A stretch of 64,000 nt of DNA, taken from NCBI GenBank assembly GCA_045131435.1, contig JBGUQW010000110.1, forward strand, positions 177 to 64,176, in the 5' to 3' direction. Each line of letters starts with the position of its first letter. Position 1 is the stretch's first letter. The stretch is from Prevotella sp. (GTDB lineage: Bacteria > Bacteroidota > Bacteroidia > Bacteroidales > Bacteroidaceae). Below the pieces are notes generated by a model, which saw only the letters and a list, made by a program, of their open reading frames with translations, was not told the origin of the DNA and searched no databases. Made by a program: the position numbers and the translations under genes. Below are positions 56,662-64,000 of the stretch, piece by piece.

Positions 56662-58305
56662 ATGAAACGGATTGTATACATATTATATATAGTTGTTGTG
56701 GCGATGATAGAGAGCTGCGCAGGCTGTGGTAACACGAAGGACGGGGCGGCGGGTAATGCCTGCAATGCAGACTTCGAGCGGACCATGCGTGTGGCCGACT
56801 CGCTTTATAGTAGCATGCAGTTCCGCGATGCCTACGACATGTACCTGCAACTATTAGACAGCAAGGAGGCCGAGGCCGACGACGAGAAACGGCTGCGCGT
56901 GCTCAGCTCGCTCAGCAACGTCAGCGAGCTCTCCGGACACAAGGACATGGAGAACAAGTGACTTCAGCAGCAGATGGACCTGGCCGAGGCGACGGGCAAC
57001 GACTACTACCACGCCATGGCTCAGGTGTCGATGGGCCAGAACATCTTCTTCGAGGGCAACCGCGAGCGGGGCATCCAGTACGTCAACGAGGCCATCAGCC
57101 TTATGGCGAAGAGCGACCGCGACGATGCCGACCACCTGACCCACGGCTTCCTGAACCTGTTGGCCAGCCTGTACAGCGAGATGAAGGACTACGACAGCGC
57201 GCTGCGCACCAACGAGCGCAACCTGCAGCTCACCACTGAGGGTACGCGCTGGGGAGCGTCACAGAACCAGCAGCTCATCGACCGCCGCATGGCACTGGCC
57301 AAGACAGCCGGCCTGCTGGCCAGGATGGGGATTCACAGTTCCGGCAGTCAGCAGAGCGCCTATTTCCAGCGCGCCGACTCGGCCTACGCTGCATGGAAGG
57401 TCGTGCAGTACGAGGGCAACCACACCCGCGACTATTTCATCGTAGATTACATGAAGCGGCGCGGACTCCATCGCGAGGCCGTCACCATCTACAACGGCCT
57501 TATCGAGCGCATACGCCAGCAGGGCGACACGCTGGGCGAGATGATGAACACCGCCAAGTGGGGCTTGGCCGACGTCTATCACCAGATGGGCCGCTGCGAG
57601 CAGGCCGCCACCCTCTACGAGCAGGTGCTCGAGATTCAGGACACGCTGAAGTGCCGCAAGGCCCGTAACACGGCCCAGGAGCTGGCCGCCGTCTATCACG
57701 ACAAGGAGCAGCAGACCATCATGCAGCAGAAGGCCGAGAACACCCGCCAGCGCTACCTGCTGTTTAGCGTTCTGGCCGTTATGCTCGCCGTGACAGTCCT
57801 TGCCGCCATCGTCATCGTAAAGAACCGTGTCATCAGCCGTAAAAACCGCTTCCTAGCCCAACAGATTTCCGAAGCGGTGAACTACAAGAAGATGTACTGG
57901 GAGGAGAAGCGGGCCCAGAAGCCGGCCGTTGTCCCCGACGCAAACATCGAGACCAACGAACAGCTCTTCCAGCACATCAACGAGGTTGTTATTCGCGAAA
58001 AACTCTTCCTCGACCCCAAGTTTGGGCGTCATACCATTATGGACCGCTTCCAGTTGTCGAAGGAGCGTGTCGGTGCCATTTTCTCCAAAGGCAGTGAACA
58101 TGCCAAGCTGAACAGCTATGTTCAGCAACTGCGTCTGGACCATGCTGCCAACCTGCTCATCGAACAGCCCGACAGGAGTGTTATTGAGATAGCCTCCGAG
58201 TGCGGTTTCAGCAGCAATACCTATTTCAGCGACTGTTTCCGTCAGCACTTCGGTATGTCTCCCACCAACTTCCGAAAGGAATCTTTGGAACCAAGTGAAG
58301 TATAA
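56662..58305 (+). pseudogene. lipoprotein-anchored TPR sensor + TM + AraC-type HTH regulator, interrupted by one in-frame TGA (56959-56961)
   Basis: ORFs 56662-56961 and 56974-58305 are in the same frame, separated only by TGA CTT CAG CAG CAG. The C-terminus has the AraC HTH IEIASECGFSSNTYFSDCFRQHFGMSP. Confidence 0.7.
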
Positions 58306-58394: not shown

Positions 58395-58425
58395 GTCTGT
58401 ACTATTGCGGTACAGACATTTTTTG
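58395..58425 (+). terminator. intrinsic terminator after the TPR/AraC gene
   Basis: GTCTGTAC-N7-GTACAGAC followed by ATTTTTT. Confidence 0.8.
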
Positions 58426-58433
58426 TATCTTTG
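58426..58433 (+). promoter_or_regulatory. -7 box TATCTTTG (BMP-like / C13 lipoprotein cluster)
   Basis: Consensus match directly after the upstream terminator, 56 nt before ATG 58489. Confidence 0.55.
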
Positions 58434-58488: not shown

Positions 58489-59577
58489 ATGAAGAGAAAA
58501 AAGATATTGGCATCATTCGCCCTATTGACTTCCATCATCATATCAGCAACTTTCACCGCTTGCAGCAAGGAGGGTGACACCATTTACCAGTCGCCTCCTG
58601 AGGACCTGCCGGCACAGACGCCACTGGTCACCGTGGTCTATGATCCGGATGCCCTGGGTGATCGTTCGTACAACGACCTTGTCTATCAAGGAGTAGAACA
58701 GGCAGCCAAGGAACATGGACTGCGCACCTTGCAGCTGTCGCCATCGTCAAGACAGGAGGGCTTGGCCTATCTGGAGAACCTGTTCACGGACCTCAGCACC
58801 CGTCAGGACACGGTACGCAGGCTGGTCATTGTCACCAGTCCGGCGTATGACGAGTTCCTGCGCAAGAACAACCGCCGGCTGGAGAACAATCCCCGTGCCG
58901 ATTTGCTCTATCTGGAAACCCGTACCCCGCTTGAGGGCAAGGGTTCAACGCTGTATATTCCCTATTACGGAGCCATGTTTGAAGCGGGTGCCATTGCCGC
59001 CCACTTCTCTTCGGAGATGCTCCTTGTGGGCGCCAATCCCCAGAATGAGTCGGTGAAGGATGCCCTGCAGGGTTTCCGCGACGGTTTTGCCACCGATATC
59101 TTCCCTTACGACAGGAAGAAGACCCTCAATGTAGAATACCTGGGCAGTGCTGCCGATGAAGGCTTCAGCATTGCCGACACCACGGCCATGAAGTTTCTGA
59201 TTGATAAGGAAGACCAATACGTGCTCCCTCTGTTGGTACCCGTCTGCGGAGGAGCGGCAGGCGTGTTCCACCGCATGAACGAGATACTCCAATTTTGTTT
59301 CATCATGGGCGTGGATGTTCCCGTGGTCTCCACCTCCTGTCCCTTCTCTGCCGTCAAGCGCATGGACCGTGCCGTGGCGCAGTGCATAACGCAGTGGCTG
59401 TCGGCTGACGGCATGCCCAAGCATCAGTCGCTGGGGTTGGCTGGTGACTTTACGGGAGTAGAGATACACACAGTAAACAGTCTGATGTCCATCGCTTTCT
59501 ATGGTGAGCTGACAGACGAAATACTCAAGGCGGCACACGACGAAGCTGTCAGAAAGGAGGCGGAGTATGAGAAGTAA
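58489..59577 (+). CDS. BMP/PnrA-like (periplasmic-binding-fold) lipoprotein
   Basis: Lipobox TFTAC, and a GDRSYNDLVYQGVEQAAKEHG block resembling BMP-family binding proteins. No ABC permease or ATPase is nearby. Confidence 0.5.
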   Translation: MKRKKILASFALLTSIIISATFTACSKEGDTIYQSPPEDLPAQTPLVTVVYDPDALGDRSYNDLVYQGVEQAAKEHGLRTLQLSPSSRQEGLAYLENLFTDLSTRQDTVRRLVIVTSPAYDEFLRKNNRRLENNPRADLLYLETRTPLEGKGSTLYIPYYGAMFEAGAIAAHFSSEMLLVGANPQNESVKDALQGFRDGFATDIFPYDRKKTLNVEYLGSAADEGFSIADTTAMKFLIDKEDQYVLPLLVPVCGGAAGVFHRMNEILQFCFIMGVDVPVVSTSCPFSAVKRMDRAVAQCITQWLSADGMPKHQSLGLAGDFTGVEIHTVNSLMSIAFYGELTDEILKAAHDEAVRKEAEYEK

Positions 59578-61930
59578 GATGATTGATGTCAGATGGATGA
59601 TGTGGCTGTGCGCAGCATGCATCATGCTTTTCACGGGATGCAAGCAGGAGGACGACACTATCGTCATACAGTCACAACGCCATTGGGTGGAGAAGACCAT
59701 GGCGGTGGTTGCCCCGCTGAGCGACATGCAGCAGAAGATGCGCCTGGAGCGGACGGCACAGTGGTTCCTGGACAATTTCCACGAAGCACAGCTCTACGAC
59801 ACACTGGCCGTCAGTCTGAAACTGGAGTGGTACGACGAGCAGACCGAAGACCTGTCGGCACTCAGCCAGCGACTGGCTGGACGCGACGACATCACGGCTA
59901 TTATCGGTCCGTTTGACAATGATGCACTGGCCGCCTTTGCCCCTGGCTGCCAGCAGACGCTCAAGCCGCTCATCACCCCAACGGCCACCGCCGAGGAGAT
60001 TATCCGCCGCTTTGCCGTTACGGCCGGCAACAACGACAAGCCCTTCCTCTGGGCACTCACCGGGACCGACGTTAAGATGACCGAGGCGCTCATGAGCAGC
60101 TATGCCGCTCTGTGCCAAACGGACCCAGAGCGTCCTTCGGTCAGTGCTAATCTACTGGCCCCGGCCAACAGCTACGGACAGACTTTCAGCTATTGGGCAC
60201 CCTTCTTTGCGGAGAACTACGACATTGACCTGATTAACAACCTGCAATACAACAACGAGGCTGAGCTCTATGAATACATCCGCTCCTACATCATCAATGC
60301 CGGTTCCGATGCCGGAAACGCCGTTATTTCGGGTACCTTCACGGTGATTGAGAGCGTCAAGCAGCTTTATGACATCGCCCGGCTGCGGCGTCAGCTGATA
60401 TTCGAGCGCATGGGGTTGGCAAGGTTTTACGATACCACTTATGACGACCCTGCAATGGATCAATTCTGGCAGCTCTTCAAGAATTTCTATGGCTCGTATT
60501 TCGCCTTGAACAACCTCTGCGAAGAGAAGATAGAAGCCCTCGGAGGGCGGGCATACCCCATACTGCAGGGCTATCAGGGATTCTCACCCTACGCTGACCC
60601 CACGACGGGCTTTGAGCTGAGCTACCAGAACCGCTTCGGTGTCAGACCGCTTTTCGCTGAGTGCAAGTTCTACGATGCGCTGATGCTCAGCGCCTTTGCC
60701 GCCTGCTACATGGAGCACCGTAGTGTGGTCGGCGGTTCTCCCGCTAACATCAACGACGCCATCGTGACCATTACCAGCGTTGCCGACAACGACAGTAAAC
60801 TCAGCGGTGCTGCCTGGAACGCCACATCCATGGAGATATACCTTTCAGCCATGGAGCGCGGCAACCTGCTGCACTTCAAGGGGGCTTCCGGCGACATTGC
60901 CTTTGACCCCGAAACCTATACGGCCGCCACACACACTACCTACGTGCAGTGGGAGATTCTTGACGGTCAGATTCACCATCGCGCCTATATCGGCGATACG
61001 GGAAGCCGCCGCATAGGAGACAGTTATGCAGCCTGGCAGTATCTCTACGACCTGAACACGGCCGAGAAGGACTTTGACGAACAGACTGCCAGCGGTACTG
61101 CCATTCAGTATCCGGCGCTAACGGATCAGTATGCCGTGCTGGTCCAGGGCAGTATAGGCTTTGAAAACTATCGCCATCAGGCCGATGTGCTTTCCGTCTA
61201 TCAGCTGCTGCGTCGTGGCGGGTTTGACGATGACCACATCATCCTGATTATTGATGCTTCGACGGCCAATGACGCTAACAACCGCGAACGGGGCATTGTC
61301 CGTGCCGCACCAGGAGGTCCCGACCTGCTGGGAGGCTCTGACGGTCTCCCCGCTGCCGTCATTGACTACGACGCTGCCTTGCTCTCGGCTGCCGACATCA
61401 GCAGCATACTTCTGGGAGAGCAGAGCAACAGGCTGCCCATTGTGCTGCCCAAGGATGCCGGACAGAACGTGCTGTTCTACTGGAGCGGACACGGGCGTAC
61501 GGGAGAGTTTTCCTGGCGTGATGCTGGCAACGGTAATGGGTTTACCTCCGACATGATGCGCCAGACGGCACAGCAGATGGCTGGTGGAGGCCACTTCCGC
61601 AAGCTGTTCGTCGTAGCAGAGCCGTGCTACTCAGAGTCAGTGGTACGTCCGTTGGAGGGTATTCAGGGCGTGCTGGCTATGACGGGAGCCAGCGGTTCCG
61701 AGCAGTCGTGGGCCGACAATTGGAGCCCCACGCTGTTGGTATGGATGAGCGACCGCTTTTCGCAGAATTTCGTGAAGATACTCTCCGAGAATCCCGCCAC
61801 GAGCTACCGCGACCTCTTCCTCTACTGTGCCGAGCACACCCTCGGCTCTCATGCCAAGATAGTGAATGCCGGCAACTTTGGCAATCTCTACTCTCTCAAT
61901 CCAAGTGAATTTATAGTTACAACAAAATAA
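59567..61930 (+). CDS. lipoprotein fusing a type-I periplasmic-binding-protein-like domain to a C13 (legumain-like) cysteine peptidase domain
   Basis: Lipobox LFTGC and a LivJ/ANF-receptor-like N-terminal half (VAPLSD...AIIGPFDNDA). The C-terminal half has YAVLVQGSIGFENYRHQADV, the His block YWSGHG and the Cys block VAEPCYSES, which align with the legumain motifs. Confidence 0.75.
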   Translation: MRSKMIDVRWMMWLCAACIMLFTGCKQEDDTIVIQSQRHWVEKTMAVVAPLSDMQQKMRLERTAQWFLDNFHEAQLYDTLAVSLKLEWYDEQTEDLSALSQRLAGRDDITAIIGPFDNDALAAFAPGCQQTLKPLITPTATAEEIIRRFAVTAGNNDKPFLWALTGTDVKMTEALMSSYAALCQTDPERPSVSANLLAPANSYGQTFSYWAPFFAENYDIDLINNLQYNNEAELYEYIRSYIINAGSDAGNAVISGTFTVIESVKQLYDIARLRRQLIFERMGLARFYDTTYDDPAMDQFWQLFKNFYGSYFALNNLCEEKIEALGGRAYPILQGYQGFSPYADPTTGFELSYQNRFGVRPLFAECKFYDALMLSAFAACYMEHRSVVGGSPANINDAIVTITSVADNDSKLSGAAWNATSMEIYLSAMERGNLLHFKGASGDIAFDPETYTAATHTTYVQWEILDGQIHHRAYIGDTGSRRIGDSYAAWQYLYDLNTAEKDFDEQTASGTAIQYPALTDQYAVLVQGSIGFENYRHQADVLSVYQLLRRGGFDDDHIILIIDASTANDANNRERGIVRAAPGGPDLLGGSDGLPAAVIDYDAALLSAADISSILLGEQSNRLPIVLPKDAGQNVLFYWSGHGRTGEFSWRDAGNGNGFTSDMMRQTAQQMAGGGHFRKLFVVAEPCYSESVVRPLEGIQGVLAMTGASGSEQSWADNWSPTLLVWMSDRFSQNFVKILSENPATSYRDLFLYCAEHTLGSHAKIVNAGNFGNLYSLNPSEFIVTTK

Positions 61931-61952
61931 ATAACAAAATACCACACGAATA

Positions 61953-64000
61953 TGAATACAAAACAAATTACCAGCTGCATGACACAGGCTATTAGGACCT
62001 GCATGTTTGCGTATATGCTGTCAGCAGGCGTCATTGGCTGTTCAGACAAGGATGTTGATTCTCCTAACGGAGGAACTGGAGGCGAAGGAATACCCGGCCA
62101 ACTGATAGGAACGTGGTATGGCGACTACTCTTCGCAAGGAAAAATAGACACGGCAGCACCCGGCAGCCGCAAGGGCTATTACGTACGTACCGTACAGGGT
62201 CTGAAGTTCAATGCCGACGGCACGGGTACCAGCTACCAGTATCTGTGCAACGTGGCCGGCGACCCCATCAGCGTCTACGGAGGTACAATGGATGCACAGA
62301 ACGGACAGTTCCACTTTACCGTCAAGGACGACAGCATCATCACTATTGTGCGCGACGGTGAGGGCGATGCCTTGCACCCCAAAACGTGGCAGGTCATCAA
62401 CGGTTGGAACGGTATACGCGGCACCGACGGCACAACAGCGTACAACATGCAGACGGCCACTGCCGAGGAGCAGGGTTATCTGACCAACTGGGCAAAGCTT
62501 CTGCGTGCTGGCAACAATGATGACCCGGAAGAGATGGCTGACTTCCTCAATAACTGGGAGAAAGCCCAGACCGTCAATCTGAGCAGCTACGGCACGCGTA
62601 ACCTGCCTTGGTATGGTTCAGCCGACAACGACATACCCGAGGCCATTCGTTTCGACATGAAGAAGGCCGACGGTTGGCAAATGGCATTCTGCATGCTCAA
62701 CGACCCGTATGCCCCCAATGTCCACATGTTCGGACTCTATAACAAGCTGACGGGCATGTTGCGTGTATGGCAGTACGTAGAAAATGCTTCCGGCTATGGC
62801 AAGGAGCTGTTCTTCAACTTGGTCAACGACAGCTATTCCCCAAACCGCTACCCGTTCTACAACTCGATGGCTTACTGCATTCCGCTCAACCGTACATGGG
62901 GTGAATCACAGACTGACAACAACTTACAGCTGAAAATGAATGCCGAGCTCATTACCAACGGCAATCGCTACAAGCCGTTTGAATACCTCATGTCGGCCTA
63001 TACCCGTTCGGGCGAAGCCAAGGGCGTGTCGCCCAACTGGCACTGTGTCGATCTTGACCTCTCTGGCTACATGCCCATGGATTTGCCTAATAGCGACGGC
63101 AAGAAATGGCGCGAGAGTGTCGATGCACAGCGTTCGCTGTTCAACATCAGCCTGGCCAGCCAGAATGTCAGCGAGATAACGCTGTCGGGCAAACTATTGG
63201 GTGGTATTGCCGGTTCTTTCACTTCTGAAACGACTGTTAAGAGCAGTTGTGCCAATCCTCATCTGGCAAATGCAACAAACGCAATAGGTAATATAGCAGG
63301 ATTCTTTAATACCAGCATCACCAATATAAGTTGTCTCTGTGGCATAGCAAAGAGCGGCGGTAACATATTCTGGGATCCATCTAAACCAGATCCAAAAGTC
63401 AATCTCATAGAAGATGACGTCAATAACATAGAAGATGACTTGTCCGATGACTCTGAAGCCCCGGCTTATGCACCCAGGAGATTTCCCCTTACTTTTATGG
63501 GATTTATAGCAGGTATATCAGGCGTGCTGAATCTTACAACGGCGGTACTGAAAAGCATTCCCAATCCTACCTCTACGAGCGAGTGTGCCAAGGGTAACAT
63601 CAATCTGTCACTGAACGCGAACCTGGACCTGAGCGGACTCATCACTCAGTGGACAGGACTGCCCGACGGCGGTGTTACCGTGACGCCCTACCTGCTCAAT
63701 GCTTCTAACGAAGACTGCTCCATAGGCACGGGCTGCTTCGGACTGAAGGAAGACCCCGTCATCTATGTTTGCAAGGAAGACCTTCTGAGTTCCTCCGACC
63801 GCATCAACATCACGAAAAACAATGATGGCACCATGTATTGCGACGACATTGAGAAAAAAGAACTGCGAATGGTGTCCTTCTTAGACCCGAGTAGCGTCAA
63901 GTTCTATCTGAATACTGACACCTACCATGACATTACAGACTTGAACCTTACTGCCATTCCCGTCGTAGATGTCTATAGGCCATTGGGAAATACCGACAGC
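61953..64000 (+). CDS. large lipoprotein of unknown function (3' end outside the window; absent from the supplied ORF track)
   Basis: My hand translation from ATG 61953 stays open to nt 64000 (more than 680 codons). Lipobox SAGVIGCSD. The sequence is Asn/Asp/Gly-rich with three GxAG hydrophobic patches. Confidence 0.6.

Follow-up and report, generated by a model that had tools for sequence, protein, structure and literature searches.

Most work on C13 cysteine peptidases concerns eukaryotic enzymes: lysosomal legumain, the vacuolar processing enzymes of plants, the peptide ligases used in biotechnology, and the enzyme of GPI anchoring. Legumain and the plant peptide asparaginyl ligases (MEROPS C13, clan CD) share a catalytic fold with an Asn-His-Cys set of residues, and the S1 pocket of human legumain is zwitterionic, formed by Arg44, His45, Ser216, and Asp231 (PMC4357240). 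GPI8/PIGK, the catalytic subunit of GPI transamidase, has the same C13 domain and acts within a multi-protein complex with PIGT, GPAA1, PIGS, and PIGU. A literature search returned no paper on the family described below, nor any on C13 peptidases or legumains of bacteria, of Prevotella, or of the rumen.

Clan CD is also found at the surface of Bacteroidales cells. The C11 proteases, such as fragipain, DpnB, and PmC11, are cysteine peptidases made as surface lipoproteins, and fragipain and DpnB activate pore-forming CDCL toxins (PMC11169675). C11 proteases are specific for Arg/Lys and process or activate secreted toxins, beside which they are usually not encoded. Two groups of binding proteins are also close to the present locus. 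LivJ/ANF-receptor proteins (Peripla_BP_6, PF01094) have the Venus-flytrap fold with IGP and P-x-I-(S/T)-P-x-A-T loops, and Bmp/PnrA nucleoside-binding lipoproteins (PF02608) have a type I binding fold with a G-D-x-S-(F/Y)-N motif near the N-terminus. In a rumen Prevotella locus, a C13 domain fused to a binding-protein fold is encoded directly after a distant Bmp/PnrA-like lipoprotein.

Organization of the Locus

The window is a stretch of 64,000 nucleotides of Prevotella sp. (contig JBGUQW010000110.1), and the genes of interest, g1, g2, and g3, lie at its end (Table 1). A first-pass annotation made from the letters alone had placed three consecutive lipoprotein genes here behind a single promoter, and this layout is borne out. 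Each of the three signal peptides ends at a lipobox Cys, with the junctions FTAC-SKEGD in g1, FTGC-KQEDD in g2, and VIGC-SDKDVD in g3. The third protein, expected to exceed 680 aa, is 874 aa long in identical metagenome contigs. Beyond the window end, g3 is followed by g4, a lipoprotein with a carbohydrate-binding domain, and by g5, a BspA-like leucine-rich repeat (LRR) protein of the type IX secretion system (T9SS), so that the system comprises at least five genes. As had also been stated for the surroundings of g1, permease and ATPase genes of ABC transporters are absent from the 38–64 kb part of the window and from the loci L001–L006, and ABC nucleoside transporter genes are linked to g1 neither in the window nor in related loci.

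Table 1. Positions in the window of the cassette genes, their domains, and the elements upstream
Feature	Position	Strand	Basis or remark
TPR/transmembrane helix/AraC-HTH regulator	56662..58305	+	Pfam HTH_18 2.5e-18, TPR_12; 548 aa intact
Terminator-like hairpin	58395..58417	.	9-bp stem then T-run, scored on both strands
Bacteroidetes -7 promoter motif TAnnTTTG (TATCTTTG)	58426..58433	+	Perfect match to consensus, consensus match only
g1, 362-aa lipoprotein, distant Bmp/PnrA-like (type I binding-protein) member	58489..59577	+	Pfam Bmp 22.2 bits, homolog matches
g2, 787-aa lipoprotein, fusion of binding domain and C13 peptidase	59567..61930	+	Cys25 then KQEDD, resembling lipoprotein export signal
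g2 type I periplasmic-binding (LivJ/ANF-receptor-like, Venus-flytrap) domain, residues ~38–478	59678..61000	+	Foldseek, motif alignment
g2 C13 catalytic domain, residues 515–787	61109..61930	+	Pfam, phmmer, Foldseek, residue conservation
g2 catalytic codons	Asn534 61166–61168, His642 61490–61492, Cys687 61625–61627	+	Coordinate mapping
g3, Asn-rich lipoprotein without known family	61952..64000 (window end)	+	683 of 874 codons in window; LES-like start CSDKDVD

The proposed promoter coincides with the TAnnTTTG motif, from which the ATG of g1 lies 55 nt downstream. The window contains 30 copies of this motif, where 18.5±4.2 would be expected; a sigma-70 promoter scan, which is uninformative for Bacteroidetes, was set aside in its favor. 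The terminator-like hairpin just upstream of the motif separates the operon starting with g1 from a preceding regulator gene. The reading frame of this regulator is broken in the window by an in-frame TGA at 56959–56961; the codon is TGG in L001–L006, where the gene is intact, and a related regulator is found upstream of the cassette in about 22 related loci.

Export signals of Bacteroidetes lipoproteins have the form CS(D/E)2 and K(D/E)2 (PMC6222051). The acidic residues following the lipobox Cys in g2 (CKQEDD, nearly invariant), g3 (CSDKD), and g4 (CSDSNDD) resemble these signals, suggesting that the three proteins are exposed at the surface; the start of g1 (CSKEGD) is a weaker match.

A Legumain-Type Peptidase Domain in g2

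The C-terminal half of g2 is a bona fide C13 (legumain) domain. The motifs on which the first-pass annotation based this assignment, ENYRHQAD with Asn534, SGHG with His642, and EPCYSES with Cys687, are all present, and residues 521–763 match Peptidase_C13 (PF01650) at E = 2e-32, scoring 113.2 bits where the threshold is 22.8. A phmmer search of the PDB finds legumains, peptide asparaginyl ligases, and GPI8 at 1e-20 to 1e-13. The best matches are to peptide asparaginyl ligases (9vsx, 2e-20; 6idv, 2e-18), and legumains and ligases in general (2e-20 to 1e-16) score better than PIGK chains (1e-14 to 6e-13). In the AF2 model of g2, Foldseek recognizes the caspase-like alpha/beta fold of clan CD and aligns it to human legumain (7fqi/4aw9) with E ~1e-16, a target TM-score of 0.87–0.89 (0.89 for 7fqi), and an rmsd of 2.6 Å. 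Sequence identity to eukaryotic C13 enzymes is only about 24%.

Asn534, His642, and Cys687 align with the catalytic residues of legumain and are invariant among 33 g2 homologs of 55–90% identity, so that the catalytic His and Cys are kept in homologs as the assignment demands. Furthermore, an alignment to hamster legumain (4d3x) identifies Arg536, His537, Ser714, and Asp729 as the equivalents of legumain Arg44, His45, Ser216, and Asp231; in the same 33 homologs the first three are invariant and Asp729 is at least 90% conserved. Because both the catalytic residues and the S1 pocket are conserved, specificity for Asn (or Asp) at P1 is expected, and g2 probably cuts surface proteins after asparagine. 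For the same reason, the possibility that g2 is a pseudo-enzyme is rejected.

Unlike legumain, g2 lacks the C-terminal prodomain (LSAM/activation peptide). Its last residue, 787, belongs to the catalytic domain, and matches of its model to prolegumains span only the peptidase part (target TM-score 0.52–0.60). It has instead an N-terminal type I binding domain, a bacterial lipoprotein anchor, and an obligate Bmp-like partner gene. From GPI8/PIGK, which it matches more weakly than legumains (~1e-14 versus 1e-20), g2 differs in its bacterial envelope context and in lacking the partner subunits and the C-terminal membrane helix. The C11 proteases share with g2 the clan and the surface lipoprotein form, but differ in their specificity and in having neither a binding-protein domain nor a Bmp-like partner.

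Binding-Protein Folds in g2 and g1

For the N-terminal half of g2, the earlier suggestion of a type I solute-binding or ANF-receptor domain stands at the level of fold, whereas the sequence similarity is weak. According to the structural model, this half is a type I periplasmic-binding fold, and only the fold search is decisive: Foldseek matches it to an ABC substrate-binding protein (4mlc) with E = 7.8e-14 and a target TM-score of 0.70, among 863 PDB matches at E ≤ 1e-3. For the window protein, similarity to LivJ/ANF-receptor sequences is near noise level, with E = 0.028 and 13.9 bits against ANF_receptor (PF01094; cut-off 25.4) and a best E of 0.39 by phmmer against the PDB. Matches to PF01094/PF13458 are on record for many g2 homologs, including distant ones. 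The IGP...PLITPTAT motifs can be aligned to a branched-chain amino-acid binding protein (4gnr); the residue after IGP is Asp/Asn in the g2 family, at a position that in LivJ-type proteins holds a ligand-contacting Ser. Conservation across the domain is dense and includes many invariant residues, both aromatic and charged. In contrast to LivJ/ANF-receptor proteins, the domain is joined to a protease and has neither an ABC transporter nor a receptor output domain. The pTM of the g2 model is 0.58, and the relative orientation of the two domains is uncertain.

g1, proposed earlier as a BMP/PnrA-like binding protein, appears to be a distant member of this group; its sequence similarity to Bmp proteins is weak. 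The assignment is supported by 14 of 32 homologs, which match Bmp (PF02608) at E ≤ 0.01 (best 3.1e-9), and g1 itself falls just under the cut-off, with 22.2 bits against 24.1. A profile of the g1 family finds weak matches to the Bmp-family lipoproteins 4pev and 2fqw in the PDB (E = 0.054), and its conserved GDRSYND motif aligns with the equivalent motif of 4pev. Unlike typical Bmp/PnrA proteins, g1 is not accompanied by ABC genes and is always paired with a C13 protein, to which it is sometimes fused. A paralogous origin of g1 and the N-terminal domain of g2 was considered and rejected, as hhalign aligns only their signal peptides and lipoboxes.

g1 and g2 Form the Conserved Unit

The two genes overlap by 11 nt, as first described, with the ATG of g2 at 59567 and the stop codon of g1 ending at 59577. 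Overlaps of 4–14 nt are found in 49 loci, most often of 11 nt (27 loci), 14 nt (10), or 8 nt (8). Of 68 genome loci, about 67 have g1 immediately before g2 (63 under strict parsing, with a g1 match remaining in four of the five exceptions), and g2 follows g1 in all 68 metagenome loci anchored on g1. The pairing is kept in members only 27–41% identical and is also found in a Treponema MAG. In several metagenome contigs, g1 and g2 are naturally fused into one ORF of 1207–1230 aa; the 1207-aa form is read as a single ORF in two contigs (P0141/P0291), and the fused gene stands alone, with no client neighbors. The conserved unit is thus g1 and g2, with g1 as an obligate partner of g2. The three genes had been expected to co-occur as a unit; this is true of the inseparable g1 and g2, but g3 homologs are detectable by BLAST in only about 22 of 81 loci.

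A Variable Slot Downstream

Downstream genes on the same strand are present in 50 of the 62 loci with enough flanking sequence and absent from the operon in the other 12; lipoproteins are among them in 40 of the 50. A g3-like superfamily is found in 31 of the 62, and g3/g4 in between roughly one quarter and one third of loci. Other loci fill the slot with unrelated surface proteins, including MACPF lipoproteins, BspA-type LRR proteins, and further lipoproteins without known family; among 131 operon neighbors, the recurring annotated families are BspA-type LRR (9), MACPF (4), and BACON (3). One cassette of 29% identity lies within a cluster holding two MACPF genes.

g3 has no match in Pfam or the PDB, and a Foldseek search with its AF2 model (pLDDT 58.6, low) returns nothing at E ≤ 1e-3. 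Its Asn content is 8.0% against a background of 3.9%, and an alignment of 18 homologs contains no conserved Asn in the N-terminal linker following the lipid anchor. g3, once nominated as a substrate of g2, may be kept as a weak candidate on grounds of composition.

Two other relationships of g3 and g4 were tried and rejected. One is that they form a "long + short" toxin pair of the MACPF/CDCL type: there are no Pfam hits and no Foldseek match for g3, and hhalign of the g3/g4 profiles against neighboring MACPF proteins recovers only the signal peptide and lipobox. Since g3 and g4 are not relatives of MACPF/CDCL proteins, the link to toxins is indirect for this window. The other is an N-terminal module common to g3, g4, and further neighbors, for which the signal from iterated HMMs is largely drift through signal peptides; once these are stripped, g3 and g4 fall into separate families, and direct BLASTP finds nothing.

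Possible Functions of the Cassette

A tentative reading, for which we see nearly an even chance, is that g1 and g2 are a lipid-anchored, probably outer-surface complex, an Asn-specific cysteine endopeptidase that processes surface proteins. In such a complex, g2 would supply an intact legumain-type catalytic domain, carrying the Venus-flytrap domain in place of a prodomain, and g1 would be a binding-fold subunit made in fixed proportion to it through translational coupling. The two binding-fold modules may serve to recognize the substrate, to place it, or to regulate entry to the active site. As clients, one would most expect other proteins of the cell surface, typically those variable ones whose genes adjoin the cassette: here the 874-aa g3, g4, and the BspA-like LRR protein, and elsewhere proteins including the MACPF pore-forming lipoproteins. 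Cleavage after Asn (or Asp at low pH) would then mature or activate these clients, or free them from the lipid anchor; a precedent is the activation of CDCL toxins by the surface C11 proteases fragipain and DpnB. We infer the surface location, the formation of a complex, the identity of the substrates, and the purpose of cleavage. Neighboring clients are not needed by the cassette itself, given the 12 loci without a downstream operon gene and the fusion that stands alone. A more specific form, which we consider rather improbable, makes g1-g2 a cis-encoded activator or sheddase under flytrap control that acts on polymorphic surface effectors, clipping the lipid-anchored ones after Asn once a cue or the client itself is bound; MACPF pore-formers, BspA-like adhesins, and g3/g4 lipoproteins would be released or armed in this way.

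The absence of the usual legumain prodomain implies that g2 needs another control, and the flytrap of g2, g1, or both may provide it by binding a small ligand, for example an amino acid or a nucleoside, with closure switching the C13 domain on or off so that proteolysis reports a nutrient or signal. The alignment of the g2 loops with a branched-chain amino-acid binding protein, the Bmp-type GDRSYND motif retained in g1, and the dense conservation of the g2 domain all agree with such gating. However, Asp/Asn takes the place of the Ser after IGP, the geometry between the domains is uncertain at a pTM of 0.58, and the conservation is equally explained by an interface between g1 and g2 or by an exosite for protein substrates. 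Ligand gating, a reasonable idea of the first-pass annotation, is on balance unlikely, and is compatible with a surface processing complex rather than exclusive of it.

Two further roles concern what the active site does. In nature, legumains process plant storage proteins, and the ruminant-gut origin of the best 80 genome loci, the several paralogous cassettes per genome, and the cassettes that lack client genes would suit a nutritional protease, digesting dietary (plant) or host protein at the cell or vesicle surface while its binding domains trap peptides or amino acids to be taken up. This is doubtful, as neither the window nor the inspected loci show a linked transporter, whether of SusC/SusD type, ABC, or another kind, the neighbors are adhesin-like or toxin-like surface proteins rather than peptidases or transporters, and strict Asn specificity fits processing better than bulk degradation. 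Still less probable is a transpeptidase or ligase, in which the C13 acyl-enzyme is resolved by an amine instead of water, the binding folds present the amine nucleophile, and surface proteins become attached or cyclized. Near-neutral pH, as in the rumen, favors ligation in known enzymes of the C13 family, the best PDB sequence matches of g2 are ligases, GPI8 is matched as well, and databases name family members "GPI8." On the other hand, the lead of ligases over proteolytic legumains is marginal in score, the cassette neighbors include no recognizable acceptor-synthesis genes and carry no recognizable C-terminal sorting motif, and g5 is already on the T9SS route. Processing of surface proteins by hydrolysis is the reading that we prefer.

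Distribution and Significance

At E ≤ 1e-30, the g2 family falls into 255 sequence clusters, nearly all of which come from ruminant guts; a scan of one genome per species gives 134 matches. Its main carriers are Prevotella and other Bacteroidales of this habitat, from which nearly all metagenome matches also come. All matches belong to MAGs or metagenomes. The family is already annotated automatically in databases as "peptidase C13/GPI8."

This large bacterial family of paired g1 and g2 offers a first bacterial handle on C13 proteases. Replacement of the eukaryotic prodomain by a solute-binding fold, together with a second binding-fold partner, suggests that an Asn-specific protease is controlled or targeted here by other means. 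A prodomain-free C13 enzyme, if active near neutral pH, would be of interest as a peptide ligase or protease tool. With its habitat and its variable surface neighbors, including MACPF proteins, the family may bear on the maturation of surface proteins, on antagonism between bacteria, or on protein breakdown in the rumen. If the cassette does act as a sheddase or activator, it would represent a new principle by which rumen Bacteroidales deploy weapons and adhesins through contact or on vesicles.

Catalytic and binding halves of g2

The C-terminal half of g2, the second of three consecutive lipoprotein genes at the end of the window, belongs to the legumain family: residues 521–763 match Pfam Peptidase_C13 (E = 2e-32) and find 36 distinct PDB sequences (legumains, plant asparaginyl ligases and GPI8; 1e-20 to 1e-13). 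An alignment of 33 homologues with 55–90% identity shows no variation at Asn534 (ENYRHQAD), His642 (SGHG) or Cys687 (EPCYSES). In human legumain, the Asn-specific S1 pocket consists of Arg44, His45, Ser216 and Asp231 (PMC4357240), whose equivalents in g2 are Arg536, His537 and Ser714, all invariant, and Asp729, kept in at least 90% of the homologues. An AlphaFold2 model (pLDDT 78.5) fits mature human legumain at a target TM-score of 0.87–0.89, bearing out the C13 assignment of the first-pass annotation. Since g2 ends where the catalytic domain ends, the legumain prodomain is missing.

The N-terminal half is marginal by the window sequence alone (ANF_receptor, E = 0.028; 4gnr, E = 0.39). Its model matches 4mlc, an ABC substrate-binding protein (E = 7.8e-14), and distant family members reach Peripla_BP_6/ANF_receptor in Pfam outright, so that the binding-domain/C13 architecture described earlier is correct. 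An intact Asn-type legumain active site is thus fused to a flytrap domain in g2.

Features of the locus
Feature	Position	Strand	Remarks
TPR/transmembrane/AraC-type regulator gene	56662–58305		upstream of hairpin, promoter motif and g1–g3
Terminator-like hairpin	58395–58417		3′ of the regulator gene
Bacteroidetes -7 promoter motif TATCTTTG	58426–58433		perfect match to the motif, after the hairpin
g1	58489–59577	same as g2, g3	362 aa
g2	59567–61930	same as g1, g3	787 aa
g3	61952 to window end	same as g1, g2	874 aa in full (length from L001–L006)
g5	L001:14964–16352, beyond window end		ordinary type I signal peptide; C-terminal end (...GVYIYKGNKRVIK) similar to a type IX secretion tail

Pairing of g1 and g2

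The Bmp/PnrA profile falls just under its threshold on g1 of the window (22.2 against 24.1 bits) and matches 14 of 32 members of the g1 family (best E = 3e-9). The conserved G-D-R-S-Y-N-D of g1 aligns with the equivalent motif of 4pev, a Bmp-family lipoprotein. As noted previously, this BMP-like protein comes without an ABC transporter, no such genes being found near g1. Apart from the signal peptide, g1 and the N-terminal domain of g2 have no detectable kinship.

One genome per species was scanned, which yielded 134 relatives; the best 80, whose loci were analysed, are all from ruminant-gut Prevotella/Bacteroidales MAGs, frequently with two or three g1–g2 cassettes per genome. Under strict parsing, a g1 homologue lies immediately 5′ of g2 in 63 of the 68 loci with sufficient flank, and BLAST still detects g1 in four of the five exceptions. 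Conversely, among 80 metagenome loci anchored on g1, g2 is directly next in all 68 with downstream room. Short overlaps are usual: 27 loci have 11 nt, the length seen in the window, 10 have 14 nt and 8 have 8 nt. The pairing is kept in cassettes only 27–41% identical to that of the window (L062, L064, L087 and L091) and in a Treponema MAG (L089). Furthermore, g1 and g2 are fused in a cluster of 1207–1230-aa proteins (g1 part 51% identical); in two independent assemblies the 1207-aa form reads as one ORF. Adjacency in both directions, overlaps, persistence in distant cassettes and fusion argue strongly that g1 and g2 function as a single unit; the partner of g2 is Bmp-like, obligate, translationally coupled and sometimes fused.

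The fusion (L172:8001–11624 and L173:7462–11085) still has, in its interior, the signal peptide and lipobox that belonged to g2 and adjoins an integrase fragment and AbiEii/KilA-N genes, with no lipoprotein genes downstream. L062:2801–12310 and L064:1327–10809 carry tandem cassettes, the second 27–29% identical to the first, with a 441-aa lipoprotein gene in between. An Armatimonadota member of 884 aa (L090:1557–8268) stands without g1 and is followed by dockerin-containing proteins, so the same binding-domain/C13 fusion is employed in a different context.

Upstream, the regulator gene has an in-frame TGA at 56959–56961 (aag tga ctt cag). In six metagenome contigs whose g2 protein is identical to that of the window, the sequence there is TGG TTA CAG and the gene encodes an intact 548-aa protein; the TGA reflects either an assembly error or a nonsense mutation specific to the strain, with three substitutions in five bases.

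Downstream neighbours

The finding of the first-pass annotation is real and well described, with corrections on the conserved unit and g3: of the proposed three-gene unit, the g1–g2 pair is conserved, and many other neighbours can stand in the place of g3. Only 20 homologues of g3 are detectable, and g3 and g4 homologues, which co-occur, are confined to about 20 loci. The locus extends past the window in six bovine/rumen metagenome contigs with an identical g2 protein (L001–L006). The gene order there is g3, one or two lipoprotein paralogues of 466–474 aa (g4, g4b), then g5, a DUF285/BspA-type LRR protein. Given the tail of g5, a likely T9SS cargo is encoded in the operon beside the lipoproteins. 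At its C-terminus, g4 has a domain that matches one in a GH92 mannosidase structure (8e-22) and is probably carbohydrate-binding. Among these contigs (e.g., L006:8210–11039) the 466-aa form alone, the g4b type (474 aa) alone or a 466-aa and 471-aa tandem occurs, suggesting recent duplication or loss of this lipoprotein.

No family was found for g3, and its low-confidence model has no structural matches. In this model, residues ~397–577 (window 63140–63680) form two very long amphipathic strands (FNISLASQNVSEITL... and NINLSLNANLDLSGLI) flanking two hydrophobic helices rich in glycine, together with a disordered loop that is acidic, rich in Asn/Asp and variable among homologues. The predicted arrangement recalls an element for membrane insertion or activation, a likeness that no match backs. 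Neither g3 nor g4 resembles a MACPF protein.

Same-strand genes follow the cassette in 50 of the 62 loci with sufficient downstream sequence, and include lipoproteins in 40 of these 50. The majority of the neighbours have no Pfam domain; recurrent annotated families among 131 are BspA-type LRR (9), MACPF (4) and BACON (3). The genes adjoining the cassette code for variable surface proteins. In L087, the distant cassette lies between two MACPF genes and a set of four lipoprotein paralogues, the latter lying 3′ and having a common N-terminal region, EEKQQKQEQE...FLLTSEFWQVVGQLS. MACPF-domain lipoproteins adjoin cassettes in rumen MAGs (L087:1367–18274, L019:12448–14634 and L050:17282–20044), some also carrying BACON and Fib_succ_major domains.

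Possible function and family status

Each of the three products has a signal peptide and lipobox Cys followed by acidic residues (g1, C-SKEGD; g2, C-KQEDD; g3, C-SDKDVD), predicted lipoprotein signals with motifs resembling lipoprotein export signals (PMC6222051). The g1 and g2 products may together make up a processing protease anchored at the surface. Substrate recognition or control would fall to its binding-fold modules, and it would act on other envelope proteins as clients, in many cases ones co-encoded with the cassette. A precedent is the activation of pore-forming CDCL toxins by lipoprotein proteases of Bacteroidales from C11, another clan-CD family (PMC11169675). As a caveat to neighbours as clients, certain cassettes have no such neighbours, the fused one among them, and g3, earlier put forward as a candidate substrate, showed no conserved cleavage site.

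The first-pass annotation read the binding domain as gating proteolysis by a ligand, which we consider unlikely. A nutritional role for the protease appears somewhat less probable still, and that the C13 domain acts in transpeptidation is quite doubtful. A processing protease is the reading we prefer.

An exhaustive search of 1.84 billion representatives gave 1670 matches at E ≤ 1e-3, 692 at ≤ 1e-10 and 255 at ≤ 1e-30. Members are mostly 700–800 aa, and most align to the query in the binding-domain and C13 parts alike; their sources name them "peptidase C13," "GPI8," "caspase family protein" or nothing. A literature search on bacterial, Prevotella or rumen C13/legumain found no study of a bacterial member. 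The g2 protein, widespread in the rumen and uncharacterised, represents a known peptidase family in a new architectural form.
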